64,000 nucleotides of DNA, taken from NCBI GenBank assembly GCA_016182875.1, contig JACPFQ010000004.1, positions 259,515-323,514 on the forward strand, in the 5' to 3' direction. The translations under genes were made by a program, and so were the position numbers. Of this stretch, positions 2,957 to 60,410 are shown piece after piece. The first letter of the stretch is position 1. Every line of letters begins with the position of its first letter. A model generated the notes under the pieces. That model saw only the letters and a list, made by a program, of their open reading frames with translations, made no database searches and was not told the DNA's origin. The DNA comes from Candidatus Doudnabacteria bacterium (GTDB lineage: Bacteria; Patescibacteriota; Doudnabacteria; UBA920; O2-02-FULL-48-8).

Positions 2957-3340
2957 TTATTTAACCTTTTTGTAAATAGCATTTTTGTAAATAGCATTAA
3001 AGATCAGGTTTAATTCTTTGGCTTCAGTCCAGAGTTTATCAGCCCTTTCTGCCATTTCAGGAACCGCGACCTTGATCATCCGCAGGAAATGCTTGCATTC
3101 TCGGGACTCTTTCTTGCAAATGCCGATTTTGTGCTTAAAGTCTGCTTTGCTTTCAGCATCATCAGCTTCGCAGTAATTAGCTCCGGTTGCGGTACCGCAT
3201 CTAACTAGCTGGTTTATTAAGGGCCTGGTTATATCATTCTTAGCCATTGCGCTGCAAAAGCGTATGACTTCTTCCCCGAACTTTGCAGTTCTTTCTTCAA
3301 GGTCATACTTTCGGCTATTAGGATTTTCGTTATTAGTCAT
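2957..3340 (-). CDS. four helix bundle protein (23S rRNA intervening-sequence protein family, TIGR02436-like)
   Basis: 127 aa; motifs EEVIRF, NQLVRCGTATGANYCEA, DF.HKIGICKKE match the family consensus. Confidence 0.8.
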   Translation of the reverse strand: MTNNENPNSRKYDLEERTAKFGEEVIRFCSAMAKNDITRPLINQLVRCGTATGANYCEADDAESKADFKHKIGICKKESRECKHFLRMIKVAVPEMAERADKLWTEAKELNLIFNAIYKNAIYKKVK

Positions 3341-4058: not shown

Positions 4059-4088
4059 TTGACAGGTATCTACATATGGGGCTATAGT
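4059..4088 (+). promoter_or_regulatory. sigma70-like promoter candidate for nrdR (TTGACA-18-TATAGT)
   Basis: ttgaca at 4059-4064 and tatagt at 4083-4088. Confidence 0.35.
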
Positions 4089-4231
4089 GCTTATGTTAAT
4101 ACTAGATATTGTGTTTGAAGCCCAAAATAGGCTACCCTTCGACACAAAATCACAACTGGCTCATTCTGCAAACTAAATCGAGAGGCCCAAAGATGTCGGA
4201 ATCACGCCTATTTTTTATGTGCTAAAAAAGC

Positions 4232-4675
4232 ATGAAATGCCCTAATTGTGCCCATGACGACAGCAAGGTTTTGGACTCGCGTCCGATTAATGACGGGCTG
4301 GCCATAAGAAGAAGGCGCGAGTGTATTAAATGCGCCTTTCGGTTTTCGACCCATGAGGAAATGGAAATTCTGGATTTAACGGTAGTCAAGCGCGACGGGC
4401 GCAAGGAGCCTTACATGCGGGAAAAGATTGAGTCCGGCATCAGGAAAGCTTTCGAAAAAAGGCCGCTTAACCGCGACGACTTCCACGCCTTAATGTCGGC
4501 GATTGAGCAAGACATTCAAAAATTGGGCCGAGACGAGATTAGTTCCCGCGAAATCGGAAGCATTGTCATGCGGCGCATCAAATCCCGCGACCAGGTTGCT
4601 TACATCAGGTTTGCCTCGGTTTATCGCCAGTTCGCCGATGTGGACGAGTTTGTGAGAGAAGCAAAAAAGTTATAA
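4232..4675 (+). CDS. nrdR: transcriptional repressor NrdR
   Basis: 147 aa; N-terminal zinc ribbon (MKCPNCAHDDSKVLDSR ... RRRRECIKC) and ATP-cone; directly upstream of an RNR gene. Confidence 0.9.
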   Translation: MKCPNCAHDDSKVLDSRPINDGLAIRRRRECIKCAFRFSTHEEMEILDLTVVKRDGRKEPYMREKIESGIRKAFEKRPLNRDDFHALMSAIEQDIQKLGRDEISSREIGSIVMRRIKSRDQVAYIRFASVYRQFADVDEFVREAKKL

Positions 4676-4765
4676 TAATTCGAAACTACGAACCGGGATC
4701 CGAATAATACGAACCCGTTCGTAGATTCGCATAAACGTTCGTAATTTCGCATTATATTTAAAAAA
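4676..4765. repeat. 88-bp imperfect palindrome in the nrdR-nrdJ spacer (copy 1)
   Basis: taataattcgaaactacgaacc...cgaataatacgaacccgttcgtagattcgcata...gttcgtaatttcgcattatatt; about 85% identical to 21077-21165. Confidence 0.7.
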
Positions 4766-4787
4766 AGAATTAACTAAAGAAACCAAT

Positions 4788-7391
4788 ATGCAGTACTACG
4801 AAGTCATCCAAAAGCATCAGTTATTAACCGCGGAAGAAGAACAACGGGTCAACGACAGCTTTTCCCAGAATGCGCTTAAGATGATGAAGAAGCGGTACCT
4901 GCTCCGCGACGAGAAGGGCACGATTTTGGAAGATCCCGCGCAAATGCTGCATCGCATCGCGCATTCTTTGGCTGACGTCGAGCGGCAGTACGGCAAAAAC
5001 CAGTTTGAAATCGAGCAAATCGAACGCGACTTTTTCTATATTATCGCCAACAAGGAATTTACCCCAGCCGGCCGGACCATCACCAACGCCGGCGCTCCTT
5101 CGGCTGTGGTTGCCAACTGCATCGTGCTACCCATCAAAGATTCGATGGAAAGCATTTTCCAAACCCTCAAGGACGCCGCCCAGCTGCAGAAAGCCGGCTC
5201 AGGCCTTGGCTTTTCGTTTACCCATCTCCGCCCCGCAGGCTCAATCGTCAAAAAATCCCAAGGCATGGCTTCTGGCCCGGTTTCATTTCTGCAGGTTTAC
5301 AATCAGGCGTTCGGAGTGATTAAACAGCAGGGCCGGCATGGGGCCAACATGGCCATTCTCCGGGTGGATCATCCTGATATTTTGGACTTCATTCACAGCA
5401 AGAAAATCGAAGGCCACATCCGCAACTTCAACATTTCAGTAGGGATTACCGATGAATTTATGGAGGCGGTAATCAATAAACCCAACGAGCCCTGGGTCTG
5501 CAAATTTGACGGAGAACCCATGAAGCCGCGCCGGATTGAGCGGGATGAGCATGGCTTAATCAAGAAAATCGAAGAGCTCGACATTTCCGCCGTCCAGTTG
5601 ATGGATGAGATTGTGTATGGCGCCTGGCGGAACGGCGAGCCGGGCGTGGTCTTCCTCGATGTCGTCAACAAAACCAATGTCTTGCCGGAGCTGGGCGAAA
5701 TTGACGCCTGCAACCCCTGCGGCGAGCAGTTCCTGCATCATTATGATGTTTGCAACTTAGGCTCCATTAATTTGGCCGTCTTGGTCAAAAACGGCCAGGT
5801 CGACTTTGAGCGGCTGCGGTTTGTGACCCGGACCGCGACCAGGTTTTTGGACAATGTCGTGGATGTTTCCAACTTCCCGGTCAAAAGCGTGGATGAGATG
5901 GCCAAAAATTCCAGGCGAATCGGCTTGGGCGTCATGGGCTTTGCCGACATGCTTTATCAACTGCGCGTGCGCTACGATTCGGCCGAAGGATACAAGGCGG
6001 CGGAAGACGTCATGCGCTGCATTCAGGAAGAGGCGCACCGGACTTCACAGGCCTTGGCCGAAGAAAAAGGCGTGTTCCCGCTTTACAATCTTTCAATCTA
6101 CAAAAAACTGGGCATTCCCATGCGCAACACAATGTTGACGACAGTAGCACCCACCGGCTCGATTTCCATGTTCTTCGACACTTCCTCCGGATGCGAGCCC
6201 AACTTCGCTTTGGCCTACACTAAGCAGGACAAAGACCGCATGCAGTATCTCTATGTCAACCAATATTTGGAAAAGGAACTCAAGGAGCGAGGCTTGTACA
6301 CTAAGGAGTTGATGGACCAAATAATTCATGAAGGCTCGCTTGCCAATATTGAGCTTCCGGAGGATCTCAAAGAGACTTTCCGCGTCTCCATGGACATTTC
6401 CGCCGAGTCTCACATCCGGGTCCAGGCGGCATTCCAGAAATGGGTGGACAATTCCATTTCCAAGACGATTAATTTTCCTTACAGCGCCACGGAAACAGAT
6501 GTCCGCCAAGGCTACATTCTAGCCTGGCAGCTTGGGTGCAAAGGTTGCACGGTTTACCGCGACGGCTCCAGAGAATTGCAGGTTTTGAATATCAACAAAA
6601 ATTTGACTGCGGACGGCAAAACCAAAATCGCAGAGAGTGCCTCCCGACGCGACTTTCAGTCGGTCGGGACCCCGACTTCCGAAGGAACGTCGGGGCAAAC
6701 TGTTCCCCAGCCAAATCCAAATCCAACCCCTATGCCCCAGCCCCAACCCCAACCCATGCCGCCGCCGGCAACTCCCAAGATGTCTGCCTCGCCGGCAGGC
6801 GGGACAATCTCGCCGCGCAAGCGGCCGGATGTCATGCACGGCGCCACGTATAAAGTCTCCACCGCCTATGGCAATCTCTATGTCACAGTCAACGAAGACG
6901 AGTTTGGCCCGTTTGAAGTGTTTTCCCAGCTCGGCAAGGCCGGCGGATTTTTCGGGGCCCAAACCGAAGCGCTATGCCGGCTGATTTCCCTAAGCCTGCG
7001 AAGCGGCATTTCGATTCAGGAAGTCGTAGACCAGCTGAAAGGGATTAGAGGGCCGGATCCCGTTTTCCATAACGGCGAGCGGATTCTTTCTTTGCCGGAC
7101 GCCATTGCCTCGGTGCTGGAAGGCCACACTAAGCGAGGCCAGCAGGAGCTGACGTTCGAACTGCCTAAAGCGGCGCCAAAAGTTGAACAGAAAGCAGAGC
7201 AGGAACTGGTTTACGAAACCGTCACGAAAGAAGTGCAACCCAGCGGTATCCTTGGAACAACAGTAGTCACGCAAAAATTTTCCATCGCTAACTTAGGCCA
7301 CGCGCCAGCTTGTCCTGATTGTTCCAACATGCTGGTCATGAAAGAAGGTTGCATGTCCTGCGAAGCGTGCGGGTTTTCGAAATGTGGTTAG
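4788..7391 (+). CDS. nrdJ: ribonucleoside-diphosphate reductase, class II (adenosylcobalamin-dependent), with C-terminal Cys-rich zinc ribbon
   Basis: 867 aa; VCNLGSINL, TVYRDGSR, NSISKTINFPY motifs; no small subunit gene nearby; B12 adenosyltransferase gene adjacent; Pro-rich low-complexity insert near the C-terminus. Confidence 0.85.
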   Translation: MQYYEVIQKHQLLTAEEEQRVNDSFSQNALKMMKKRYLLRDEKGTILEDPAQMLHRIAHSLADVERQYGKNQFEIEQIERDFFYIIANKEFTPAGRTITNAGAPSAVVANCIVLPIKDSMESIFQTLKDAAQLQKAGSGLGFSFTHLRPAGSIVKKSQGMASGPVSFLQVYNQAFGVIKQQGRHGANMAILRVDHPDILDFIHSKKIEGHIRNFNISVGITDEFMEAVINKPNEPWVCKFDGEPMKPRRIERDEHGLIKKIEELDISAVQLMDEIVYGAWRNGEPGVVFLDVVNKTNVLPELGEIDACNPCGEQFLHHYDVCNLGSINLAVLVKNGQVDFERLRFVTRTATRFLDNVVDVSNFPVKSVDEMAKNSRRIGLGVMGFADMLYQLRVRYDSAEGYKAAEDVMRCIQEEAHRTSQALAEEKGVFPLYNLSIYKKLGIPMRNTMLTTVAPTGSISMFFDTSSGCEPNFALAYTKQDKDRMQYLYVNQYLEKELKERGLYTKELMDQIIHEGSLANIELPEDLKETFRVSMDISAESHIRVQAAFQKWVDNSISKTINFPYSATETDVRQGYILAWQLGCKGCTVYRDGSRELQVLNINKNLTADGKTKIAESASRRDFQSVGTPTSEGTSGQTVPQPNPNPTPMPQPQPQPMPPPATPKMSASPAGGTISPRKRPDVMHGATYKVSTAYGNLYVTVNEDEFGPFEVFSQLGKAGGFFGAQTEALCRLISLSLRSGISIQEVVDQLKGIRGPDPVFHNGERILSLPDAIASVLEGHTKRGQQELTFELPKAAPKVEQKAEQELVYETVTKEVQPSGILGTTVVTQKFSIANLGHAPACPDCSNMLVMKEGCMSCEACGFSKCG

Positions 7392-7596: not shown

Positions 7597-8124
7597 ATGC
7601 AAAAGGGTCTGGTAATCATTTATATAGGCAACGGCAAAGGCAAGACCTCAGCCGCCGCTGGCTTGGCGATTCGGGCGGCGGGAACCGGCATGAAAGTTTT
7701 GTACGCGCAATTTGTGAAGGGCGATTGGCCGAGCGGCGAGCGGAAAATTTTGGAGACCTTGCCCAATGTGACGGTTAAGCTCATGGGCCGGGGATTCGTG
7801 GGCATTTTGGGCGACCGCAAGCCTATTGAGGAACATATCCGTGCCGCAAAGCTTGGACTGAAGCTTGTGTTGAAGGCTTTGAAAAGCAAAAAATATGATC
7901 TGGTCATCGCCGACGAGGCGATTTCCGCGATTGAGTCCAAGCTTTTGACAGTAGAAGATGTTTACAAATTAATTAAACAAAAGCCGCAGAACGTCCATTT
8001 ATGCCTCACCGGCCACAAGCGAATCAAAAAATTGATAGATGCGGCGGATCTGGTGACGGAAATGAAAATGATCAAGCATCCCTATTATCTGGGCATTCTT
8101 GCGCAGAGAGGGATTGATTATTAA
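7597..8124 (+). CDS. cobO: cob(I)yrinic acid a,c-diamide / cob(I)alamin adenosyltransferase (CobO/CobA/BtuR family)
   Basis: 175 aa; P-loop GNGKGKTSAAAGLAIRAAGTG and YAQFVKG motif typical of the family. Confidence 0.8.
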   Translation: MQKGLVIIYIGNGKGKTSAAAGLAIRAAGTGMKVLYAQFVKGDWPSGERKILETLPNVTVKLMGRGFVGILGDRKPIEEHIRAAKLGLKLVLKALKSKKYDLVIADEAISAIESKLLTVEDVYKLIKQKPQNVHLCLTGHKRIKKLIDAADLVTEMKMIKHPYYLGILAQRGIDY

Positions 8125-9709: not shown

Positions 9710-10111
9710 ATGTTTAAAAATTCAGCCAAAAAGCTAGAAATATTCGTCATTATCTCAATTATTGCCATAATCGGGATTATTTATGCTTTAGCCAAACAGC
9801 CGGTGGTGGCCCCGAGAGTAAGCCAGGACCGCAACCAAACGGAGAGCATCCAGCAAGTTCCCCAAACTGCGATTCAATATCAGGGCGTAGACGGCCAAAA
9901 CGCCTTATCACTGCTTAAGGCTTATCATAATGTCGAGACAAAAGATTACGCGGGAATTGGGGAGTACGTGATCTCTATCGACGGGATTGCTCCGGACAGC
10001 AAACATTTTTGGGCGTTTTATGTGAATGAGAAACAAGCCGAGGTTGGAGCCGGGGCTTACGTCACCAAAAGCTCGGACGTAATTGAATGGAAACTGGAAG
10101 AAATTAAATAG
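9710..10111 (+). CDS. DUF4430-domain protein with N-terminal TM anchor (putative cobalamin-binding module)
   Basis: 133 aa; ALSLLKAYH...GEYVISIDGI...KHFWAFYVNEKQAEVGAGAYVTKSSDVIEWKL matches the DUF4430 pattern. Confidence 0.6.
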   Translation: MFKNSAKKLEIFVIISIIAIIGIIYALAKQPVVAPRVSQDRNQTESIQQVPQTAIQYQGVDGQNALSLLKAYHNVETKDYAGIGEYVISIDGIAPDSKHFWAFYVNEKQAEVGAGAYVTKSSDVIEWKLEEIK

Positions 10112-10131
10112 TTTGTAGTTGGTAGTTTGTA

Positions 10132-10692
10132 GTGAGTAGAAACTACAAACTACTCACTACGCACTACTCACTATCGATGCTCGCGTATTTTCTAATTTTT
10201 CTCGGAGCGTTTTTGCGAATCTTACCGCATCCGGCTAACTTCGCCCCGATTGCGGCCATTGCCTTGTTTGGCAGCGCTTATCTTAATAAAAAATTGGCGC
10301 TGATTCTGCCGCTTGTGGCCATGATTATCTCCGACTACTTCATCGGATTCGATTCGCTCAGCTCGCGTTTGACTGTTTACGGCACTTTTATTTTGGTCGG
10401 GCTTTTGGGATTCTGGCTGAGGGTCAAAAGAAGCCCGGGCCGGATTGTGGCCGCTTCCCTGGCCGGCTCCCTGATTTTTTATTTAATTACCAACTTCGCT
10501 TTTTTGTACCCTGCCGGTATGTACAGCCATGATTTGAACGGCGTGATGTCATCTTACATTAACGCTCTGCCGTTCTTTAGGAATACTTTGTTAGGCGACT
10601 TGTTTTACGTCAGCTTGTTTTTTGGAATTTATGAATTAGCATCGTACTATGTCAAGAATCATTCGAGTTCACGTTCAAACCCACGCGCATGA
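10132..10692 (+). CDS. small polytopic membrane protein (ECF S-component-like size and topology; possible vitamin transporter)
   Basis: 186 aa, about 5 hydrophobic helices; ends with TGA overlapping the next gene. Confidence 0.4.
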   Translation: MSRNYKLLTTHYSLSMLAYFLIFLGAFLRILPHPANFAPIAAIALFGSAYLNKKLALILPLVAMIISDYFIGFDSLSSRLTVYGTFILVGLLGFWLRVKRSPGRIVAASLAGSLIFYLITNFAFLYPAGMYSHDLNGVMSSYINALPFFRNTLLGDLFYVSLFFGIYELASYYVKNHSSSRSNPRA

Positions 10693-10873: not shown

Positions 10874-11030
10874 CCGTTCTCCCGTTCGCTCCCGTTTTTT
10901 ATCTAAAACTGAAATGCTGGTACATGAATTGCACGGCCGCGTAATTCATGTACTGGCATCGATGGAACATAAATATTGCGATCGCAAGAATTATGTTCCT
11001 CTAGTTGCGGCAAAAAATTTGGCTATTGTA

Positions 11031-11064
11031 GGTACCTAAAAAAGCCATGGCTAATTTAGGTGCC
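11031..11064. repeat. 34-bp palindrome ggtacctaaaaaagccatggctaatttaggtgcc (copy 1)
   Basis: Near-identical perfect palindrome at 33437-33470 (GGTACC...GCCATGGC...GGTACC). Confidence 0.6.
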
Positions 11065-15579: not shown

Positions 15580-15700
15580 ATTAGAATTTCCCTCCCCTTG
15601 CAGGGGAGGGACCAAGGGTGGGGTGGATAGAGGCAACCTCATCCCACCTCTCCCCCGACCCCTCTCCTGGAAGGAGAGGGGAGATCTAATCTGAAGTAAA
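15580..15700. mobile_element. solo (ORF-less) member of the hairpin/G-rich/C-rich element family
   Basis: ccctcccct tgc aggggaggg ... gggtggggtggat ... atcccacctc ... cccctctcc tgga aggagagggg; about 85% identical to 20664-20770. Confidence 0.6.
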
Positions 15701-16301: not shown

Positions 16302-16335
16302 GTCACGTAACACGTATCATGTAACACGTAACAGA
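16302..16335. repeat. tandem ACGTAWCA octamer repeats (gtcacgtaacacgtatcatgtaacacgtaacag)
   Basis: The same octamer in tandem also at 58925-58955; related motifs at 42205-42270 and 45983-45992. Confidence 0.5.
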
Positions 16336-16336
16336 G

Positions 16337-16362
16337 ACAGCCTGAGGGCTGTTTTTGTTTTT
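16337..16362 (+). terminator. rho-independent terminator after ndk
   Basis: cagcc tgag ggctg followed by tttttgtttttc. Confidence 0.6.
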
Positions 16363-16385
16363 CTATTTTTGTTAGAATCAGAAGC

Positions 16386-17593: not shown

Positions 17594-18511
17594 ATGCCAG
17601 AATTGCCAGAAGTCGAAACCATTGTTCGAGAGCTTAGACCTAAGCTTCGAAACAAAAAAATCAAAGACATCCGCGTCTTGCTGCCAAAAATGGTGGCGCT
17701 GGGGCCGGCGACTTTACCGAATCTTCGAAACACTTCTGGATTAGTGGCAGTTAAATTTGCCAAGACGTTAAAAGGTTTGAAGGTTACAAATGTTAAAAGG
17801 CGCGCGAAGCTTATCATTATCGACTTGGCGGGTAAATATTCTATTTTGGTTCATCTGAAAATGACTGGTCAACTAATTTTTTTAGATAAAAAGCATCTTA
17901 ACAAGCAGATAAGGCTTTTAAACATTCCAACTTTAAAACCTTCTAACCTCCCGGCCAAATCTACGCACGTCATTTTTGATTTCACGGACGGCTCTAGGCT
18001 TTTTTACAATGACTTTCGGCGGTTTGGGTACTTGAAGCTAGTTACTGATCAAGAACTGCCGCACGTCAGGGAATTGCAGGAATACGGTCCTGAGCCGCTT
18101 GACATAAATTTCACGACCGGTAAATTTATGTCAATTGTGAATAAACGACCGAAAGCAAAAATCAAACAATTTTTAATGGATCCAAAAAATATTGCCGGAA
18201 TCGGAAATATTTATTCCGACGAGATTTTGTATTATGCCAAGCTCAGGCCAAATCGGAGAGTGAACAGCCTGACGACGCAGGAGAAAAAAAAGTTATACTT
18301 AGGTATAGCAAAAATCTTGGGCGATGCCGTAGTGCATTACGGTTCATCGGTCGGAGACTTCGTCCGGCCTAGCGGCGATTGGGGGACCTACGGCTTTTTG
18401 CATAAAGTCTATGGCCGGGCAGGAGAAAAATGCAAAGTTTGTGGTAGTATAATAAAGAGCATTAAGTTCAACGGCAGGACGGGAAGTTTCTGTCCTGTTT
18501 GCCAGAAATAG
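17594..18511 (+). CDS. mutM: formamidopyrimidine-DNA glycosylase (Fpg/Nei family)
   Basis: 305 aa; MPELPEVE N-terminus, H2TH region and C-terminal zinc finger CKVCGS...CPVCQ. Confidence 0.85.
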   Translation: MPELPEVETIVRELRPKLRNKKIKDIRVLLPKMVALGPATLPNLRNTSGLVAVKFAKTLKGLKVTNVKRRAKLIIIDLAGKYSILVHLKMTGQLIFLDKKHLNKQIRLLNIPTLKPSNLPAKSTHVIFDFTDGSRLFYNDFRRFGYLKLVTDQELPHVRELQEYGPEPLDINFTTGKFMSIVNKRPKAKIKQFLMDPKNIAGIGNIYSDEILYYAKLRPNRRVNSLTTQEKKKLYLGIAKILGDAVVHYGSSVGDFVRPSGDWGTYGFLHKVYGRAGEKCKVCGSIIKSIKFNGRTGSFCPVCQK

Positions 18512-20663: not shown

Positions 20664-20770
20664 TTAGGATTTCCCTCCCCTCCCAGGGGAGGGACTAAGG
20701 GTGGGGTGGGTAAAGCAACCTTAAAGCCACCTCTCCCCCGACCCCTCTCCTGCGAGGAGAGGGGAGTTCT
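20664..20770. mobile_element. solo hairpin/G-rich/C-rich element, copy 2 (upstream of groES)
   Basis: ccctcccctcccaggggaggg...gggtggggtgggta...gccacctc...cccctctcctgcgaggagagggg; paralog of 15580-15700. Confidence 0.6.
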
Positions 20771-20788
20771 AAGCAGAAGGAGAACCAA

Positions 20789-21076
20789 ATGAATATCAAA
20801 CCATTGGGCGACAGGGTGCTTGTAAAGCCTCTGACCCAAGAAGAAGTTACCAAGTCAGGGATCGTGCTGCCTGACACTGCCGAGAAGGAAAAAAAAGAGC
20901 AGGGTGAGGTCGTGGCCATCGGCGAAGGCGAGAAAATCAAGAAGCTCAATCTCAAAATCGGCGATAAAGTTTTGTTCGGCAAATACTCAGGTGATGACGT
21001 CGAGATGGGAGAAGGTACGAATAAGGTCGAATATAAATTCCTCAAAGATGAGGATATTTTGGGCATTGTTGAGTAA
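20789..21076 (+). CDS. groES: co-chaperonin GroES
   Basis: 95 aa; IKPLGDRVLVK...GIVLPDTAKEK...GEVVAVG. Confidence 0.9.
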   Translation: MNIKPLGDRVLVKPLTQEEVTKSGIVLPDTAEKEKKEQGEVVAIGEGEKIKKLNLKIGDKVLFGKYSGDDVEMGEGTNKVEYKFLKDEDILGIVE

Positions 21077-22822
<1,746 letters not shown>

Positions 22823-22860
22823 TCCACTAATAGACACGAATATAAAACCAATAAACACTA

Positions 22861-23277
22861 ATGGCAGAACTCTTACATAAAGAGTTATCATATATAGTGC
22901 ATGGTGCGGCTATTGAAGTTCGAAAAGATTTTGGGCCAGGACACAAAGAAAAACTATATCAAACAGCATTTGCGCAGGAACTCGACCGCCGAAGTATAAA
23001 TTTCAAACAAGAGCCAGCAGTAAATATCTATTCACCTAAGGATGGACAAAAAGTCGGGTTATATTGACCCGACTTTGTTGTTGACGGTAAAATACTTGTC
23101 GAAATGAAGGCTGAAAAATTCGTTAATCGTGATGAGATCAAAAGAATCTATGATTATTTGCGAAACAGTAAATATGAATTAGCCTATTTTATAAACTTCG
23201 CTTCACCTAAGCTCTACGTCAGACGCATCATCTTTACTAATGATAGAAAGCTTTCAATGCCCAGTAAGTTCGTGTAA
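22861..23277 (+). pseudogene. GxxExxY protein (PD-(D/E)xK-like, TIGR04256-like) with in-frame TGA at 23065-23067
   Basis: ELSYIVHGAAIEVRKDFGPGHKEKLYQTAFAQEL...VGLY[TGA]PDFVVDGKILVEMKA...AYFINFASPKLYVRRII reads through in a single frame. Confidence 0.7.
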
Positions 23278-23345
23278 ATTCGTCTATTATTAGTGTTAAT
23301 TAGTGGTTTATTTGGCTAAGTTAAGCCTTTTTTGAGGCCAAAGTC

Positions 23346-23481
23346 TTGACAGCGCCGGCAAAAAGGTATATACTTTTGAGTTCTTTTTAAAATCGCATAT
23401 TATGCCAATTTCGTAACAGGACCGAAGTTTGGCGTTAAAAATTATACAAAAACAGCTCCTGTATTACGAGCTGTTTTTGTT
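23346..23481 (+). ncRNA. candidate small RNA unit (promoter TTGACA-17-TATACT to intrinsic terminator, about 100 nt transcript)
   Basis: ttgaca at 23346, tatact at 23369; hairpin acagctc ctgtattac gagctgt plus T-run at 23452-23481; no ORF longer than 5 codons. Confidence 0.25.
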
Positions 23482-23614
23482 TCCACTATTCTGGGTACTA
23501 ACTTGATTTAGCCCGCCCGAACGTACCGTTCGGTACGGGCGGGCAGGGAAATCATTTTATTGCCCTCTTAAGCAATCAAGCCTAAGTACCCAGAATTGTG
23601 GAAGTAACAGCAAG
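23479..23614 (+). repeat. array leader repeat copy A (gtttccactattctgggtac ... gtacccagaattgtggaagtaacagcaag) with nested GC hairpin insert
   Basis: Inverted arms flank a conserved core; ends 43 bp before the ORF 23657 start. Confidence 0.7.
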
Positions 23615-23656
23615 TTCTTTTGTTTTAGCGCTTTAAATGCGCAGCGGGAGTGTGAG

Positions 23657-24013
23657 ATGAAGAATATGCGATGTATTGCGTTGTACTTCGCCTTGGTCGC
23701 CTCGCTTGGTTTCAATGTCTACTACATGTTCAAAATGTCGGCGGGCCGCGTCGGCCAGGTCATGACAAGGGTCGGCAACATCCCGAACAACGAAGTGCAG
23801 TTCGAGCTCTTCGAAGTCAGCGCTGTCGGTCAGTCGAAGATGCTCTATGGCTGTTTGGAACTCCGCGCGGTGGAGAAGACCATGGCCTACCTCGGGACCA
23901 CGTATAGCGCGGACTATACGTACTTCACCGAACAGGGGTGGGTCACCATGCTGGTCGATCCGGTTCCGGTGACGTTCGCCGGCCTTCGATACATCAACCA
24001 GCGTATCGAGTAG
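23657..24013 (+). CDS. array ORF1: small secreted/membrane protein (118 aa)
   Basis: Signal-peptide-like N-terminus; GC about 60%. Confidence 0.5.
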   Translation: MKNMRCIALYFALVASLGFNVYYMFKMSAGRVGQVMTRVGNIPNNEVQFELFEVSAVGQSKMLYGCLELRAVEKTMAYLGTTYSADYTYFTEQGWVTMLVDPVPVTFAGLRYINQRIE

Positions 24014-24248
24014 TGCCAACAACCGGCGGCGCCGGAAACTGAGGGTAAGTAGGAGGAAGTTCCCAACCGCTTGGCGGCGGTCACAAATCATTTCGGATTA
24101 CTTCATTCTAAGTAATCCACCCAGAAGTGCGCCAACACTTCTCCTGTCCTGTGAGCTAGTACTCTAATACTGCGCCGTATTAGAGTGAAGCTTAGAGGAT
24201 AGGACATTAACAAACTTCTAATTTCTAATTACTAATTTCTAAAATTTT

Positions 24249-24340
24249 GTTTCCACGATTCTGGGCGTTAGTTAGAACTAAGGATGAATTCAGTAATACT
24301 GCCTTGAAAGTTAAATTGATACCCAGAATCGTGGAAGTGA
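24249..24340 (+). repeat. array leader repeat copy D (gtttccacgattctggg ... cccagaatcgtggaagtg)
   Basis: 13-bp perfect inverted arms; ends 40 bp before ORF 24380. Confidence 0.7.
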
Positions 24341-24379
24341 AAGATTGTCAGCACCTGACAAGGTGCAAAGTGAGGCAAC

Positions 24380-24613
24380 ATGAAGGGATTAAGCGCTCTC
24401 CTCGGAATCGCGATGATACTTCTGGCTCTCCGGGTTAGCTCTGTTGTTGAAGCCAACCCTGATCCATATAGGGAGATTCTCCCCGGGGTGATTGCGGTCG
24501 CCTCGATCGTCTGTCTCGTAATGGCCGCCGCCGGCCTGCTGCTGTACGCGATCTCGCCGCCGAGTAATCGGGACAACCTGCCGCGGCAGACGTCCTGTCG
24601 GTGGCACAAGTAA
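24380..24613 (+). CDS. array ORF2: small membrane protein (77 aa, two predicted TM helices)
   Basis: Hydrophobic; GC-rich. Confidence 0.45.
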   Translation: MKGLSALLGIAMILLALRVSSVVEANPDPYREILPGVIAVASIVCLVMAAAGLLLYAISPPSNRDNLPRQTSCRWHK

Positions 24614-24738
24614 GGCCAACGACGGCACTATGAATGGAGGACACAGAATGCATTAAGTAACTCGCGAACCATCGCGAATTGAATAGTGGGGCCAGAGCAA
24701 GCCAAACCTCTGTCCCCACATCCCGTTTCCAATATTTT

Positions 24739-24833
24739 GTTTCCACTATTCTGGGTACTAACTTGATTTAGCAGGGAAATCATTTTATTGCCCTCTTAAG
24801 CAATCAAGCCTAAGCACCCAGAATTGTGGAATT
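24739..24833 (+). repeat. array leader repeat copy B
   Basis: gtttccactattctgggtactaacttgatttagcagggaaatcattttattgccctcttaagcaatcaagcctaagcacccagaattgtgga; about 95% identical to copy A without its insert. Confidence 0.75.
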
Positions 24834-25101
24834 GAAAGGGAGGATGGACATGACGCGTGCGCAGCGCAAGAGATACGAAAGGAAGATGCAGAAGAAGGCC
24901 GAACGGGGCCTGATTGCGCCGACTCTCGTGATCGTCGGCGGGCTGGCCTTGGCGCAGGTCGGTTACTCGTTGATCTCTGAGCCGTTCAGGATCATCGAGT
25001 TCATCGGCCTCGGCATCGTCGCTCTCGCCGGAGCCGATTGGTTGAGAGTATTCGTGTACATGTATCGCAACCGGCCGACCTACGAGGATCGGCTGCTCTA
25101 G
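24826..25101 (+). CDS. array ORF3: small membrane protein (probable start MDMTRAQ at 24847)
   Basis: RBS gggagg; basic N-terminus followed by two TM helices. Confidence 0.45.
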   Translation: MELKGRMDMTRAQRKRYERKMQKKAERGLIAPTLVIVGGLALAQVGYSLISEPFRIIEFIGLGIVALAGADWLRVFVYMYRNRPTYEDRLL

Positions 25102-25109
25102 GAGGGCAG

Positions 25110-25460
25110 ATGAAGCTCAGAACCATCGGTTGGGTGCTCGCGTTTGTCGCCGCGGCCATTGTCGGCGCGATCGGCGACAACATGTACATGCAGGCGCGGC
25201 TTGAAGCCCAGCTCGGCTCATGCCCCGCCACGGTCCAGGTCCTGCAAGACGCCCTCGACAACTCGGCTGTGCTGAAAGAACAGCTGACCGAGTGGTTCGT
25301 GGCCACCGACGAACAAACCAAGCCGCTTCGGCTGACCTCCTTCACTGTCAGCCAAAAGGGCGAGGAGAAGCGCTGGGTCGGAGCCGCGGTCGAGAAGGAC
25401 CTGCTGCTCTCGCCGATCGGCAGAATCGTCGGCCGTGTCGTCGGCGAAGCCGGTCCCTAG
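25110..25460 (+). CDS. array ORF4: membrane-anchored small protein (116 aa)
   Basis: RBS ggaggg 6 nt upstream of ATG 25110; N-terminal TM helix. Confidence 0.45.
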   Translation: MKLRTIGWVLAFVAAAIVGAIGDNMYMQARLEAQLGSCPATVQVLQDALDNSAVLKEQLTEWFVATDEQTKPLRLTSFTVSQKGEEKRWVGAAVEKDLLLSPIGRIVGRVVGEAGP

Positions 25461-25610
25461 CGTTCCGTGAGGCGCGATGAGTGAGAGGTCTATTCGACTC
25501 TCCTCATCCGCTCTCTTCCTAAATTTTCGAGATTCGAAGATTTTGGAAGGGAGCAATCCCGAAACGGATTTAAATACTTTAATACATTATCGTATTAAAG
25601 TGAATAGGTT

Positions 25611-25739
25611 AATAGTTAACAGCCACGAGCCAAGCTCGTGTCCGCCATTCTGGGTACTAACTTGATTTAGCAGGGAAATCAAATTATGCCCTCAAAGCAA
25701 TCAAGCCATTGCACCCAGAGTCGTGGAAGTAACAGCAAG
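25611..25739 (+). repeat. array leader repeat copy C (with upstream conserved module aatagttaacagccacgagccaagctcgtg)
   Basis: Same core as A/B; the upstream module is shared with copy G (26905-26945). Confidence 0.7.
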
Positions 25740-25776
25740 ATCTTTGATAAAAAAAGTCGCCTTGGTTAGGCGACGG

Positions 25777-26158
25777 CTAGTATAGAATATAGTTAGTAAG
25801 GCAGAACAATTCCGAGTTTGTCGGCCACTTTTTTGGCCCAAGCTTCCAGGACTTCCAGGCGTTTGCGCATGATGATATGCTCTTCCTGGAAAGTTTTGAC
25901 GATTTTAGTAAGCCCGTCAGGTTTGTTAAGAGAATGTCAATCTTTGAATCAGTATGCGCTAAATCCTCTTTAGTGACAAAGACTTCTTTCTCAGCTTCGA
26001 TTAAATTTTTGATGTCCTGGGGAGTAAGCATTTATGCTGTTAATTAATATTAAAATTTGATCTATATGTTTTTGAACCTTAGTAATATCCGCTTCCAGCT
26101 TGTCGAACTTCTCGTCCAAGTATCCCAATAATGGTTTAAAATTAATCTCAGCCATAAT
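25777..26158 (-). pseudogene. AT-rich coiled-coil protein remnant broken into at least three frames
   Basis: MAEINFKPLLGYLDEKFDKLEADITKVQ... / MLTPQDIKNLIEAEKEVFVTKEDL... / KIVKTFQEEHIIMRKRLEVLEAWAKKVADKLGIVLPY lie in different frames on the minus strand. Confidence 0.25.
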
Positions 26159-26204
26159 AGTGCATTTATTCTAGTCCTTTGAAAATTTCCAGTCAATATA
26201 TTTT

Positions 26205-26252
26205 GTTTCTACGGTTCTGGGCGTTAGAATTAGCACCCAGAATTGTGGAGGC
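26205..26252 (+). repeat. array leader repeat copy F (short form: gtttctacggttctgggcgttagaattagcacccagaattgtggaggc)
   Basis: Minimal inverted-arm version; ends 19 bp before ORF 26271. Confidence 0.65.
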
Positions 26253-26270
26253 AAACAAGCTTCTACTAAT

Positions 26271-26669
26271 ATGCAGGAGGACTGCATGACGATAAACCAT
26301 GAGTTTAAGGTCGGCGATCGTGTCAGGTTTTCTCGAGCCGGAATTGGCGACTCGATTGACCTTTCTGAGGAAAGAGTCGCTCAACTGAGACAGAAAATCG
26401 CTCAGTTGAAAGATCAGGCAGTCGAGAAAGAACTGGCTGTAGACCAGCAGATTGAACTGGAAGCGAGCATGGATGAATTGGATTACATCCTCTTGCTCAG
26501 TTCAAACTCAATCTACTGCGTAGTCGAAAAGAGAACGCAGTGTACGATTTTCGAGAACACCAGCGGTGTCTCGAAAGAAGTTTTGGCCCAGGACATCAAG
26601 CTTGAAGATGTTTTTGTGCCAAATCTCTACGACGAGCTTTTCCCGGTTGACTGGTTCGAACTCGCTTAA
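26271..26669 (+). CDS. array ORF6: hypothetical soluble protein (132 aa)
   Basis: RBS gcaggagg; no TM segment. Confidence 0.45.
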   Translation: MQEDCMTINHEFKVGDRVRFSRAGIGDSIDLSEERVAQLRQKIAQLKDQAVEKELAVDQQIELEASMDELDYILLLSSNSIYCVVEKRTQCTIFENTSGVSKEVLAQDIKLEDVFVPNLYDELFPVDWFELA

Positions 26670-26797
26670 GTAGTCCTGTTCGGAAATCTCTCAAGGTTGG
26701 TTGGGTTAGAAGCAAGCCCCGTGTGGTGTAGCCGTCGTGCAATTACCAAGAAGTGCAGTTAGGTCCAAGGTGTAAGTTGATTAATTTCTCTTCCACC

Positions 26798-26853
26798 TTT
26801 CTATTTCCCTTCAATGGGACTGATGAGTCCGTGAAATCCGGACGAAATAGAAA
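26798..26853 (+). ncRNA. candidate minimal type III hammerhead ribozyme
   Basis: Stem III tttctat/atagaaa; U17; stem I tccc-ttcaat-ggga; CUGAUGA at 26820-26826; stem II GUCCG-ugaaauc-CGGAC with G10.1:C11.1; GAAA at 26844-26847. Confidence 0.55.
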
Positions 26854-26855
26854 TT

Positions 26856-27085
26856 GTTTCCACGATTCTGAATACTTAATGTTGTAATACAGGAACTAAA
26901 TAGTTAACAGTCACGAGCTAAGCTCGTGTCCACCATTCTGGGCACTTATCTTGGTTTAGTCCCGACGCTACGGTTCCGACGCAAGGTCGGAACAGGTCGG
27001 GACAGGCAGGGAATCATATATAAATGCCCTCGAGCCTTAAGCAATCAATGCTCTAAGTACCCAGAATTGTGGAAGTAACAGCAAG
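26856..27085 (+). repeat. array leader repeat copy G (composite, 230 bp, extra nested hairpins gtcccgac...gtcgggac)
   Basis: gtttccacgattctg ... aatagttaacagtcacgagctaagctcgtgtccaccattctgggcac ... gtacccagaattgtggaagtaacagcaag; ends 18 bp before ORF 27104. Confidence 0.7.
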
Positions 27086-27103
27086 TTCTTTTGAGCGCGA
27101 AAT

Positions 27104-27439: not shown

Positions 27440-27658
27440 CGCGTCGTAAAAGTGCAAAGGTGGCGAGATGGTTCATACCCACGATGGGTCACTGACCGTT
27501 TTGCCTTCCTTCCCTTGGACTGCACTTATAATACTTTAACGTATTGAAGTGGAGTCCAGAGGATCGGAAGTTAAATCAGTAATAAGAAACTAGTAATAAG
27601 TAATTAGGACAAAAGATTCTAATTACTATATACTTTTTACTAATTACTAATCACTTTT

Positions 27659-29393: not shown

Positions 29394-29591
29394 ATGGCTG
29401 TACCAAAAAAGCATAAAACTAGATCGGGCCGCAATCAACGGCGGGCTCATGACTTTTTGATTAAGACCAACTTGGCAGTTTGCAGCAACTGCAAATACCC
29501 CGTGATGCCGCATGAGGTTTGCCAGAACTGCGGATACTACAAAGGACGGCAGGTTTTGAGGATCAAGGCAAAAACTAAGGCATCGAAATAA
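29394..29591 (+). CDS. rpmF: 50S ribosomal protein L32
   Basis: 65 aa; MAVPKKHKTRSGRNQRRAHD...CSNC...CQNCGYYKG. Confidence 0.85.
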   Translation: MAVPKKHKTRSGRNQRRAHDFLIKTNLAVCSNCKYPVMPHEVCQNCGYYKGRQVLRIKAKTKASK

Positions 29592-29682
29592 TTTTAAATT
29601 TCGAGTTTTGAATTTCGAGTGAATTTTAGAATTTATAATAATTCGAAATTGAATCAAAATTCAAAATTATGAATTCATAATT

Positions 29683-30138
29683 ATGGCTAATAGGCACCTT
29701 TCCAGAACAATTGCGATGCAGTCGCTGTATGAGTGGGATTTCAACGACCGAGCCAAACCGCTTTCGGACATCACGCAGTACAATGTAAAGCAGTTCGCCC
29801 CGGGCCTCGATGATCCCGCTTTTATTTTTAATTTGATTAAGGGAGTGGAAGAGCATATGGCCGACATCGACAAGATAATCCAAGAGACCGCTCCCGAATG
29901 GCCGCTCGACCAGATCACGGTCGTGGACAGAAATATTCTCCGCCTGGGCATTTATGAATTGCTGTTCGCCCATGAAGTCCCGCCCAAGGTGGCGATCAAT
30001 GAAGCGGTGGAACTCGGCAAGGCGTTTGGCGGCGAGTCATCCGGTAAGTTTATCAACGGAGTACTGGGAACTTTATATAAGAATCTTCCGCAAGCGGAGC
30101 AAGACAAAGAAAAACCGGAAGATAGCGAAAAAGTTTGA
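29683..30138 (+). CDS. nusB: transcription antitermination factor NusB
   Basis: 151 aa; [17 protein letters not shown]... typical NusB helical fold signature. Confidence 0.8.
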
Positions 30139-30280
30139 CCAGGTACTAGAAATTTGACTTAATTTTTCGACCACTTAAGATTTTGGCCTGCTCCTGGTCG
30201 AAAAATTATAGCGCGATATGTTTTTGATTGAGGATTCTTTGCATGAAAAACGTATCGCGGGTCAAAATTTCAGTACCTGG
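30139..30280. mobile_element. MITE-like element copy 2
   Basis: About 90% identical to 1564-1704 with the same terminal inverted repeats. Confidence 0.7.
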
Positions 30281-30362
30281 TTGACTGCTGTTTGCTCCCG
30301 TTATACAATAAAATAAATTAATAAGGCTTAACCGCGAGAGTTATTTCTCGCGGTTTAAATTT

Positions 30363-33436: not shown

Positions 33437-33470
33437 GGTACCTAAAATAGCCATGGCTAATATAGGTACC
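33437..33470. repeat. 34-bp perfect palindrome ggtacctaaaatagccatggctaatataggtacc (copy 2)
   Basis: Paralog of 11031-11064. Confidence 0.6.
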
Positions 33471-45980: not shown

Positions 45981-46002
45981 GCCAGATAACACGTAACAAA
46001 AT

Positions 46003-46036
46003 AAAGCGGCTCTATTTGGGAGCCGCTTTATTTTGA
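46003..46036 (+). terminator. rho-independent terminator
   Basis: aaagcggctc tatttgg gagccgcttt followed by attttg. Confidence 0.6.
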
Positions 46037-54087: not shown

Positions 54088-54120
54088 TTGACATAAAAAC
54101 ATCGGTCGCTATAATTATGT
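54088..54120 (+). promoter_or_regulatory. promoter/operator module copy 1 (TTGACA-16-TATAAT inside acataaaaacatcggtcgctataattatgt)
   Basis: Identical 30-bp module repeated at 54672-54701; ends in the inverted repeat ACATAA...TTATGT. Confidence 0.55.
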
Positions 54121-54121
54121 C

Positions 54122-54667
54122 ATGAGAATTAAAGGCTCTGAGATTTTAAAATATGTTTTGCTGGGCATTGGATTAACCGGATTGGTGCTCGTTGCCATTA
54201 CTGCGCCTAATCTTTTTTCGGCATTAGGGCAATTTACCGGCCGCAAAGGTTACAGAAAACAGCAGATCCGGCGCGCGTTTGACTACGCCAGAAAAAGCCA
54301 GATGATAGAAATCAAAAAAACTCCAAGCGGCTACGCGGTCATGCTTACGGAAAAGGGCAAGGAAAGAATGGCTAAATTTCGTTTGGGCGAGCTTGAGCTT
54401 GCTAAACCCAAAAAGTGGGACGGCAAATGGCGCGTTGTTATTTTCGACATTCCGGAAAGGTATAAATTGAGTCGCCTGGTTTTCGCCAAGAAACTTAAAG
54501 AGCTTGGATTGGCCCAAATGCAGAAAAGCGTCTGGGTTTGGCCTTATGATCTGCAAGACGAAATAGATCTGATGAAGGAAGCTTATGAAATCAGGCCATT
54601 TGTCCGCCTGATTTTGGCTCAAAACATCGACCGGCAGACAGACTTGCTTAAATTTTTTAATTTATAG
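54122..54667 (+). CDS. membrane-anchored PaaX-like transcriptional regulator (wHTH plus PaaX_C-like domain)
   Basis: 181 aa; N-terminal TM; KWDGKWRVVIFDIPERYKLSRLVFAKKLKELGLAQMQKSVWVWP matches the PaaX C-terminal signature. Confidence 0.5.
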   Translation: MRIKGSEILKYVLLGIGLTGLVLVAITAPNLFSALGQFTGRKGYRKQQIRRAFDYARKSQMIEIKKTPSGYAVMLTEKGKERMAKFRLGELELAKPKKWDGKWRVVIFDIPERYKLSRLVFAKKLKELGLAQMQKSVWVWPYDLQDEIDLMKEAYEIRPFVRLILAQNIDRQTDLLKFFNL

Positions 54668-54668
54668 C

Positions 54669-54701
54669 TTAACATAAAAACATCGGTCGCTATAATTATG
54701 T
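54669..54701 (+). promoter_or_regulatory. promoter/operator module copy 2 (TTAACA-16-TATAAT) upstream of pilB
   Basis: aacataaaaacatcggtcgctataattatgtt, 30/30 identical to the copy-1 core. Confidence 0.55.
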
Positions 54702-54818
54702 TAAATTGTCAGAGGAGCCTGCTTCTCTTATAAAGTAGGCTTTATGGTATAATAAGGACGACCTTTTGATTATTTCAGAAACAAACCTAGTGCAATTTAT
54801 TAAATTTCTACTACCCTG

Positions 54819-56567
54819 ATGGCTTTAAACGAGCAGGATTTAAAACGTGCTTTGGTTTCAAAAAAAATCCTCAGTGCAAAAAGCTGGGACGAGCAGTTAG
54901 CTGAGGCTAAAACCAAAAGACAGGATATCGGCCAGCTTCTGATCGACAAGAAGCTGGTGGAAGAAGAACAACTGGCGCAAATCACCGCTCAGTTTTTTGA
55001 TGTTGAATACGTCGACCTCAAACAGCTTGAACAGATTCCTAAAGAAGTCCTGCTTTTGGTTCCGGAGCCGATTGCCCGGCGGCATCAGGTGGTAGCGTTT
55101 GGAAAGGAAAAGGACAAGCTAAACCTGGCCATGATTGACCCCAATGACCTGGAGACCAGGGATGCCATTAAGAAAAAGACGGACTTGGTAGTTTTGCCTT
55201 TTTTGATTTCCAAAAGCTCTTTGGACTGGGGGCTCAAGCAGTACCACACCTCGCTTGAAGCTGAATTTGCCAAAATAGTTTCGCAGCCTTCGAAGGAAGG
55301 CGAACATGAACCGGAGGCGGTCACGGCCAAACTCAAGGAAATGGCTCAAGAGATCCCGGTGGTCCGCGTCGTCGATACGCTCTTGGAGTATGCGATTTTG
55401 GAGAAAGCCTCGGACATCCATATCGAGCCTCATGAGAAAGACTTAATCGTGCGATACAGAATCGACGGCGTGCTCCATGAAGTCATGACCTTGCCCAAGG
55501 TCATCCAGCCGGCGCTTGTGGCGCGGATTAAAGTTATCGCCGACTTGAAAATCGACGAACATCGACTGCCGCAGGACGGCCGCTTCAAAGTGGAAAAGGA
55601 AGATTATAAAATTTCGATTCGGGTCTCGACCATTCCCGTGTTCGACGGCGAAAAGGTCGTCATGCGCCTGCTTGATGAATCAGCCCGCGCCATGACCCTT
55701 GAAGAGCTCGGGTTTATCCATCGCAATTACGATACGATACTGCGAAACGTCAAAAAACCGCACGGCGCCCTGTTTGTCACCGGCCCTACCGGAAGCGGCA
55801 AATCGACCACGCTTTATACCATTATTTCCATGCTCAACACCAAAGGCGTCAATATTTCCACGATTGAAGAGCCGATCGAGTATCACATCCCGGGTGTCAA
55901 TCAAATGCAGGTTAATCCCAAGATCGGGTTGACTTTCGCCACTGGTTTAAGGGCGCTTTTGAGGCAGGACCCGAACATCATTATGATTGGCGAGGTCAGA
56001 GACCGAGAAACCGCGGAGGAAGCCGTGCACGCGGCTTTGACCGGACACATAGTTTTGGCCACGCTTCACACCAATAATGCTTCCGGAGCATTGCCCAGGC
56101 TTCTCGACATCGGCGTAGAACCATACTTGATTGCCTCCACCATCAACGCCGTGGTCGGGCAAAGGCTGACCAGGCAAATATGCCAGGATTGCAAAGTCGA
56201 GGTCCATATCGATGAAAAATTCGAGGAAAGTTTGCGAAAGGAATACAATCTCGAGCATTTATTGGGGGTCATGAAGCGCGAGGGTTTTATCGAAAAAAAT
56301 ATAAAAAATCTGAGGGAGGTTACTTTTTACAAAGGCCAGGGGTGCGACAAGTGCGGCCATACGGGCTACAGGACCCGCAAGGGTATTTATGAAGTTTTGG
56401 AAGTAACCGCGGAAATCCAGGACTTGATTTTGAAACACGCTCCGACTTCCCAGATCCAGGAAAAAGCCGTGGAACAGGGGATGATTTTGATGTGGGAGGA
56501 CGGATTTATCAAATGCGCGCAGGGCCAAACCACCATTGAGGAGATTTTGAGGGTGAGTAAAGAATAA
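54819..56567 (+). CDS. pilB: type IV pilus assembly ATPase PilB (GspE family)
   Basis: 582 aa; N-terminal GSPII_E domain; Walker A GPTGSGKST; Asp box; His box; C-terminal CDKCGHTGY zinc motif. Confidence 0.9.
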   Translation: MALNEQDLKRALVSKKILSAKSWDEQLAEAKTKRQDIGQLLIDKKLVEEEQLAQITAQFFDVEYVDLKQLEQIPKEVLLLVPEPIARRHQVVAFGKEKDKLNLAMIDPNDLETRDAIKKKTDLVVLPFLISKSSLDWGLKQYHTSLEAEFAKIVSQPSKEGEHEPEAVTAKLKEMAQEIPVVRVVDTLLEYAILEKASDIHIEPHEKDLIVRYRIDGVLHEVMTLPKVIQPALVARIKVIADLKIDEHRLPQDGRFKVEKEDYKISIRVSTIPVFDGEKVVMRLLDESARAMTLEELGFIHRNYDTILRNVKKPHGALFVTGPTGSGKSTTLYTIISMLNTKGVNISTIEEPIEYHIPGVNQMQVNPKIGLTFATGLRALLRQDPNIIMIGEVRDRETAEEAVHAALTGHIVLATLHTNNASGALPRLLDIGVEPYLIASTINAVVGQRLTRQICQDCKVEVHIDEKFEESLRKEYNLEHLLGVMKREGFIEKNIKNLREVTFYKGQGCDKCGHTGYRTRKGIYEVLEVTAEIQDLILKHAPTSQIQEKAVEQGMILMWEDGFIKCAQGQTTIEEILRVSKE

Positions 56568-56657
56568 TGCAAAAATCAAAGCTCAAAAATCAAAATGTAA
56601 TTAAAAATGCAAAGAGAATAATTTTTAATTTTGCTTTGTCATTTTGCATTTTGACTT

Positions 56658-60316: not shown

Positions 60317-60321
60317 TCCAC

Positions 60322-60397
60322 GAAAGCACACGAATATTAAACTAATAGCCACTAACTGTTCGTGTAAATTCGTCTGATATTAGTGTTAATTAGTGGT
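60322..60397. repeat. palindromic element (cacgaatattaaactaatagccactaa...ttcgtgtaaattcgtctgatattagtgttaattagtgg) = empty version of the inverted repeats flanking the GxxExxY gene
   Basis: 60343-60392 is about 90% identical to 23262-23310; left part resembles 22823-22868. Confidence 0.55.
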
Positions 60398-60410
60398 ATA
60401 ATTAAAGCGT

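Follow-up and report, generated by a model that had tools for sequence, protein, structure and literature searches.

The genomes of CPR/Patescibacteria, at about 1 Mb, are usually described as streamlined, and our literature search found no paper on MITE-like repeats in them. In mycobacteria, MIRUs are short repeats placed precisely between one gene's stop codon and the start codon of the next gene in the transcript, with the junction kept intact; the element described here also lies at stop/start junctions, but is a palindrome, whereas MIRUs are tandem direct repeats with small open reading frames (ORFs). The ends of IR/DR-type Tc1/mariner elements and of IS630-family MITEs are bordered by TA and carry two transposase-binding direct repeats per inverted end (2+2). 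Our element resembles them in its TA borders and its 2+2 arrangement. IR/DR ends, described from eukaryotic elements, span about 200 bp; for our element, no related transposase or full-length form was found.

Published prokaryotic MITEs are small, AT-rich and intergenic and give stem-loop transcripts, a description that our element fits (PMC10969869). The Correia elements (CREE) of Neisseria are roughly 100-150 bp long, can serve as RNase III substrates and IHF-binding sites, and can give rise to promoters (PMC2649163, PMC10969869). They share with our element non-coding inverted repeats, TA borders, dispersed intergenic copies near gene starts and co-transcription as hairpins, the last of these being probable for our element (PMC2649163, PMC10969869). 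Unlike CREE, to which it has no sequence similarity, our element is only about 75 nt long and almost all arm, resides in a CPR bacterium, has no evident IHF site or strong outward promoter, and builds each arm from two direct 16-nt units instead of one 26-bp terminal repeat. Chunjie, a MITE of Geobacter uraniireducens, has likewise inserted inside an operon with the structure kept, its other copies being intergenic, according to the account cited in PMC10969869; by that account it spans 178-235 bp with defined terminal and direct repeats, whereas our element is much smaller and its duplication only putative. REP, BIME and REPIN sequences are also intergenic, abundant, palindromic, hairpin-forming and non-autonomous, and often lie in operons (PMC2817692, PMC3116915). 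Their units differ from ours: in a REP, a GT(A/G)G head precedes a GC-rich palindrome, whereas ours lack palindromic symmetry and are rich in AT. We saw no RAYT among the scanned ORFs of the window. Our element is probably a further instance of the well-known MITE kind, and is best compared with Correia elements and Chunjie.

The DNA analysed here, hereafter the window, is a stretch of 64,000 nt from a Candidatus Doudnabacteria genome (contig JACPFQ010000004.1, positions 259,515 to 323,514). Two copies of the palindrome lie in it: copy A fills the nrdR-nrdJ spacer and copy B the groES-groEL spacer (Table 1). Pfam places NrdR at 4232-4675, class II ribonucleotide reductase (RNR) at 4788-7391, Cpn10 at 20789-21076 and Cpn60 at 21176-22822, so that both copies lie between co-directional genes and just 5′ of the larger one, as an initial annotation of this DNA had it. 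That annotation also reported palindromes at both places, with arm sequences that proved correct, and predicted a long RNA hairpin from each; the predicted folds of copies A and B reach -25 and -29 kcal/mol (z = -3.7 and -3.8), and 0-1 of 200 shuffles fold as well. Its length of 88-90 nt has to be revised, as the conserved element stops at 4754 and 21155 and thus measures 79 nt counting the flanking TA at both borders, or about 75 nt without them. The identity of about 85% that it gave applies to this core (84-85%, 67/80 columns), and falls to 80% (73/91 columns) over the longer coordinates that it used. Each copy is about 75% self-complementary, contains no ORF and hence no coding capacity in its 75-79 nt, lies far below the 500 bp that bounds a MITE, and is AT-richer than the genome, with a GC content of 40% against 49%. 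With a profile built on the pair, each copy scores E ~1e-30; pattern and profile searches of the 64-kb window identify copies A and B as the only members of the family there.

Table 1. Parts of the two palindromes and of the sequences that adjoin them, in window coordinates.
Feature	Coordinates	Strand	Remarks
nrdR stop codon	4673..4675	+	TAA; abuts left TA of copy A
Copy A, whole	4676..4754	.	TA at 4676-4677 and 4753-4754
Copy A, outer-left unit	4678..4693	+	ATTCGAAACTACGAAC; Y-end
Copy A, inner-left unit	4698..4714	+	ATCCGAATAATACGAAC; 17 nt; preceded by spacer CGGG
Copy A, inner-right unit	4717..4732	-	GTTCGTAGATTCGCAT; reverse orientation; preceded by 2-nt loop CC
Copy A, outer-right unit	4737..4752	-	GTTCGTAATTTCGCAT; G-end; reverse complement ATGCGAAATTACGAAC; preceded by spacer AAAC
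Ancestral nrdJ leader	4755..4787	+	TATTTAAAAAAAGAATTAACTAAAGAAACCAAT; outside the repeat; homologous to leader of element-less relatives
groES stop codon	21074..21076	+	TAA; abuts left TA of copy B
Copy B, whole	21077..21155	.	TA at 21077-21078 and 21154-21155
Copy B, outer-left unit	21079..21095	+	ATGCGAAAATTACGAAC; G-end
Copy B, inner-left unit	21100..21116	+	ATCCGAATAATGCGAAC
Copy B, inner-right unit	21118..21133	-	GTTCGTAGATTCGCAT; same as copy A inner-right unit
Copy B, outer-right unit	21138..21153	-	GTTCGTAGTTTCGAAT; Y-end
Short groEL leader	21156..21175	+	20 nt; Shine-Dalgarno-like GGAAAGGAA; outside the repeat

The element is laid out as TA, U1, 4 nt, U2, a loop of 1-2 nt, U3, 4 nt, U4, TA. 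Units U1 and U2 follow AT-N-CGAA-N2-3-(T/G)(A/G)CGAAC over 16-17 nt and U3 and U4 are the reversed unit, so each side carries two units that form inverted terminal repeats; because the two pairs face each other, the whole is an imperfect palindrome. Its two ends are distinct, a G-end (ATGCGAAA) and a Y-end (AT(T/C)CGAAA) being present in 9/9 Doudnabacteria copies. When the two copies are compared, their inner units match directly, while the outer pair of copy B corresponds to the reverse-complemented outer pair of copy A. With a slash marking the boundary, the borders TA/AT-N-CGAA...TTCG-N-AT/TA are exact in all 12 copies that we tabulated, and the symmetry of the flanks halts at the TA.

We scanned one genome per species with a degenerate two-unit pattern, a search biased towards that pattern which returned many chance matches alongside full elements. 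The resulting family table and profile comprise 12 copies, nine of them from Doudnabacteria. The same architecture and boundaries recur in at least four other Doudnabacteria/Yanofskybacteria MAGs, in unrelated operons: full elements are present in the Doudnabacteria assemblies JACQJI01, JACQHB01 (at least four copies) and MFEL01 (at least two full copies and, upstream of smpB, a half-element), in the Yanofskybacteria assemblies MGKI01 and JACPAB01, and in one Parcubacteria MAG. All copies are intergenic. They lie at the junctions atpA>atpG, infC>rpmI, rpmI>rplT, nusG>rplK, rplQ>rplM, secD>secF, peptidase>nfo and membrane protein>VirD4-like, and upstream of dnaJ, prfA and hpf, so the element is dispersed in multiple copies both within and between genomes. 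With respect to the direction of transcription, five of the nine Doudnabacteria copies have the G-end upstream and four have the Y-end there. The initial annotation had named a multitude of copies at unrelated sites as the outcome that would refute it, and this is the outcome that we obtained.

Identity between copies is high across genomes and loci alike. Copy A is 96% identical to the JACQHB01 copy at rpmI>rplT (L106a), which lies in another genome at another locus, and 91% identical to the JACQJI01 copy at atpA>atpG (L015); the JACQHB01 copy at infC>rpmI (L106b) and the MFEL01 copy at nusG>rplK (L113) share 99%. At third codon positions, identity between the window and the relatives closest to it is just 54-58%, with synonymous sites near saturation, and no other L20 protein in the protein collection exceeds 89% identity to the JACQHB01 one. 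Identities of 91-99% that include the spacers require that the copies descend recently from conserved masters or that every position is under very strong constraint. Judged from the sequences, independent evolution of binding sites cannot give such near-identity.

A metagenome scan with the same pattern bias returned at least several palindromic arrays of TACGAA units, on CPR-like and Bacteroidota-like contigs, together with unrelated coding matches. On the Bacteroidota-like contigs (L009, L012, L044, L054, L055, L099, L108, L131, L193 and others), palindromes of tandem TACGAAC heptamers are framed by CCACCGAAG...CTTCGGTGG. Distinct variants of the palindrome, some of them half-elements that follow terminators, occur in Saccharibacteria, Falkowbacteria and Nomurabacteria.

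Comparison of orthologous junctions revealed presence/absence polymorphism at groES-groEL, nrdR-nrdJ, infC>rpmI and rpmI>rplT. Two relatives, L118 (GroEL 82% identical to that of the window) and L119 (81%), read 'TAAtATG' at groES-groEL with no spacer at all, and two others carry different inserts there, namely a 77-nt hairpin of ACACGTAAC-type units in L117 (GroEL 89%) and a 73-nt hairpin with AATTCGTA units in L242 (GroEL 75%). The palindrome is absent between nrdR and nrdJ in L240-L243: in L240 two additional genes separate nrdR from nrdJ, and the spacers of L241-L243 (79-267 nt) are palindrome-free and share a common nrdJ leader with a promoter-like GTCGTA(G/A)AAT that does not occur in the window. 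The 33 nt that follow copy A align with the nrdJ leader of these element-less relatives. Across infC-rpmI-rplT, where JACQHB01 has two copies, rpmI>rplT measures 1-4 nt in L244, L246 and L247, a fourth relative having a different AT-rich hairpin, and infC>rpmI measures 3-5 nt in L244 and L247, with other hairpins in L245 and L246. This pattern of absence indicates that the element was gained in particular lineages and that the junctions themselves are variable.

Measured from the upstream stop codon, five copies have their insertion point at 0, three at -3, one at -4 and one at -10; at offset 0 the stop codon consists of TA and the first A of the element. A TA stands on both sides in 12/12 copies. 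Because TA is itself palindromic, it may be the element's own terminus, and its status as a target-site duplication is ambiguous: when empty sites were reconstructed, L035 and L113 favoured one TA kept, and L015, L026 and L106a fitted better with none, a regular stop codon being regained in each case. An empty groES-groEL allele with the TA duplicated would read ...TAA-TA-TATTCTGG... Our search for an empty allele of either window site in any strain yielded only contigs that end inside copy B. These two Logan contigs (L250 and L251, with identical groES), from independent short-read assemblies, stop at the same base, ...GTTCGTAGATTC, as expected at a repeat, and illustrate how short-read assemblies break within this element.

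Of the roles that the initial annotation had listed, that of another MITE is the one favoured by the dispersed copies, the two orientations and the absence at relatives' junctions. Copies A and B probably represent a non-autonomous, MITE-like element whose insertion sites are TA dinucleotides at a stop codon or shortly past it and which is tolerated as a hairpin between cistrons. Neither copy is a regulatory site dedicated to nrdR/nrdJ or groES/groEL. In the most likely mechanism, a transposase encoded elsewhere would bind the two sites at each end and move the element in trans, with insertion at a TA dinucleotide located inside the upstream gene's stop codon or 3-10 nt past it. Since the element begins with A, a TAA stop would be restored at TA/A. 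The insert would then be transcribed within the operon and fold as a long imperfect hairpin between the cistrons, and it is probably this folding that makes insertion tolerable at tightly packed stop/start junctions. A related autonomous IS with the same ends was found neither in the window, where none of 47 ORFs has a transposase domain (Pfam or NCBIfam), nor in any locus examined, where element ends were never paired 0.3-3 kb apart, nor in viral contigs, which gave two chance coding matches only and no autonomous partner.

Such an element bears on how tightly coupled genes tolerate insertion. The consequence for nrdJ and groEL themselves is probably small, and we see no evidence of a new regulatory mechanism; in genome annotation, spacers of this kind should not be taken for gene-specific operators.

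Alternatively, the palindrome could be an RNA hairpin selected in the operon mRNA — an RNase III site, a 3′-exonuclease barrier, or a device that sets the nrdR:nrdJ and groES:groEL ratios. Copies A and B do lie between co-directional genes and fold stably, and Correia elements in Neisseria transcripts are cut by RNase III (PMC2649163, PMC10969869). Different hairpin inserts also occur at the same junctions elsewhere (groES-groEL in L117 and L242, infC>rpmI in L245 and L246; z = -2.7 to -5.7), and a hairpin is present in 3/5 genomes at each of groES-groEL and infC-rpmI, against about 14% of junctions overall. The comparative evidence, however, makes selection for RNA structure quite unlikely. 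RNAalifold placed 25 pairs with 0 compensatory changes and a positive covariation term (+0.48), no covariation being measurable since the paired columns are invariant; the covariation check proposed with the initial annotation thus came back empty (0/25). A stem mismatch at columns 5/106, which results from the differing ends, is kept in 9/9 Doudnabacteria copies and never repaired. In 9/12 copies the more stable fold is that of the antisense strand, there is no sense-strand G·U bias, and the family profile scores equally on both strands. Copies occur in both orientations, L118 and L119 dispense with any groES-groEL spacer, and spacers and mismatches are 96-99% conserved between copies, beyond what structure needs. 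The RNase III, stabiliser and differential-expression roles suggested earlier accordingly gain no comparative support, given the lack of covariation and of a sense advantage, the two orientations and the absence in relatives; a secondary RNA-level effect on these operons may nevertheless exist.

A REPIN/BIME-type element, moved as single-stranded DNA by a RAYT (IS200/IS605-like) instead of a DDE-derived MITE, is very unlikely. The palindrome is an intergenic doublet of about the right size, many of its units contain GTAG (GTTCGTAG...), and REPINs are likewise non-autonomous hairpin-forming repeats (PMC3116915). Against this, the GT(A/G)G head of published REPs leads into an imperfect palindrome rich in GC (PMC2817692), a unit structure that our non-palindromic, AT-rich units do not have. 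The scanned window ORFs include no Y1 transposase domain and no RAYT flanked by repeats, and RAYTs were reported only from Gammaproteobacteria in the study of PMC2817692.

Highly improbable is a reading in which the four units form an operator array, or a promoter plus operator, through which a DNA-binding regulator (response-regulator-like or LexA) controls the downstream gene. The CGAA/TTCG cores do recur every 8-12 nt, with the two units of each side 19-20 nt apart, as regulator phasing of about 10 bp would have it; TATAAT-like AT-rich bases follow the last unit, start codons lie 6-13 nt after that unit in many copies, which is what prompted the promoter idea, and the half-element in the divergent smpB/argS region points toward smpB. 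Yet the downstream genes form no coherent regulon, the element is missing at orthologous junctions, and copies that are 96-99% identical, spacers included, imply copy-and-paste. RNR genes are reportedly SOS targets in Patescibacteria, a lead for a LexA operator. The Gram-positive-type LexA box has the consensus CGAAC-N4-GTTCG, which neither copy contains, as their centres read CGAAC-CC-GTTCG (copy A) and CGAAC-G-GTTCG (copy B); with box spacing unfit and downstream genes that are not an SOS set, we rejected a LexA/SOS operator. A promoter of the form TTCGTA-N18-TAnnnT, or with a 'TCGNAT' -10, was rejected as well: the best sigma-70 match inside the element is weak (9/12), canonical TTGACA-N17-TATAAT promoters exist elsewhere in the window, and the palindrome would fire antisense too, its left half into the upstream gene.

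Established regulatory motifs gave no match in the element either. The NrdR box, a 16-bp palindrome of consensus acaCwAtATaTwGtgt, matches the window at up to three mismatches only at 4099-4114 and 26191-26206, outside both copies, and CIRCE, the HrcA operator (TTAGCACTC-N9-GAGTGCTAA), has no window match at that threshold, which agrees with the earlier statement that the palindrome is neither. The first of these NrdR-box-like sequences (ATACTAGATATTGTGT) begins 11 nt past a near-consensus promoter, TTGACA-18-TATAGT (4059-4088), upstream of nrdR; we found no link between the palindrome and control by NrdR or by heat shock. A consensus scan called neither copy, with its long, AT-rich stem, as an intrinsic terminator, and TIGR arrays were set aside because the element is a single palindrome and not a tandem array. 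Rfam models at gathering score matched nothing in the element and, in the window, only two tRNAs and an AdoCbl-II riboswitch. This cobalamin riboswitch aptamer lies at 1391-1445 on the minus strand (42.8 bits against a gathering score of 36.5), and genes for a B12-dependent RNR and a corrinoid adenosyltransferase (7597-8124) are likewise present in the window.

Hairpins at gene junctions of the lineage are not confined to this MITE-like element. With a crude gene call over the window and six related loci, 23/164 co-directional junctions, about 1 in 7, contain a hairpin of at least 20 pairs. Palindromes of 65-115 nt with different internal repeated units lie at 10100-10175, 27575-27655, 29588-29684 and 56564-56680 in the window, of which at least the first, third and fourth fill a stop-to-start spacer; the DUF4430>DUF6580 junction, occupied by 10100-10175 in the window, measures 0-2 nt in L241-L243. 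These palindromes and the hairpin frequency of about 14% point to several coexisting hairpin-insert families in these small genomes, sitting exactly at stop/start junctions of essential operons. The recurrence in 3/5 genomes at groES-groEL and infC-rpmI exceeds this background, and could be explained equally well by selection or by permissive or hot sites. That Doudnabacteria have repeatedly acquired unrelated hairpin inserts at core-operon stop/start junctions and retained them because they are useful is unlikely in our estimate. If true, it would mean that in regulator-poor genomes a hairpin could decouple neighbouring cistrons, or adjust them relative to each other, in translation and mRNA decay, and mobile palindromes would repeatedly supply ultra-small bacteria with post-transcriptional control.

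The window contains several further repeats. A repeat at 22823-23313 and 60317-60410, whose ends are adjacent at the latter site and about 400 nt apart after groEL (with a 68-aa ORF inside), contains a degenerate unit, GTTCGTGTAAATTCGTCT, related to the nrdR-nrdJ/groES-groEL element. Units of the ACACGTAAC type, which also build the groES-groEL hairpin of L117, lie at 16305-16365 and 45990-46035 in the window and at 6700-6765 and 9924-10000 in L117; their occurrence followed by a terminator hairpin after ndk is conserved between the two. A GC-rich repeat with two hairpins (CCCTCCCCT...AGGGGAGGG and CCCCTCTCC...GGAGAGGGG) precedes both ndk (15581-15696) and groES (20664-20779), its copies being 84-86% identical. 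A composite repeat of about 150 nt belonging to a different family has two copies, about 85% identical, at 1559-1711 and 30132-30285, and the intergenic spacers around them (~190 and ~237 nt) give very long hairpins when folded, at -73 and -85 kcal/mol.

Downstream of groEL, a series of imperfect palindromic repeats separates small unannotated ORFs (23472-27091; also L118 12670-12695), with its clearest copy at 23472-23612 (about 140 nt arm to arm, GTTTCCACTATTCTGGGTACT... / ...AGTACCCAGAATTGTGGAAG). Relatives have similar strings of small ORFs, and the series looks like a cassette array. An ORF at 2957-3340 on the minus strand has a 23S rRNA intervening-sequence protein domain (PF05635). A 34-nt palindrome, GGTACCTAAAA.AGCCATGGCTAAT.TAGGTACC, occurs twice (11031-11064 and 33437-33470). 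Finally, a 35-nt palindrome (TTGACATAAA...TTTATGTCA) occurs at 10919-10953, 18099-18133, 54088-54122 and 54669-54703. Its copy at 54088 reads TTGACA-N16-TATAAT, and its last base (54122) lies 6 nt upstream of the ATG with which a PaaX_M-domain gene starts, an arrangement that suggests a leaderless transcript with an autoregulatory operator.
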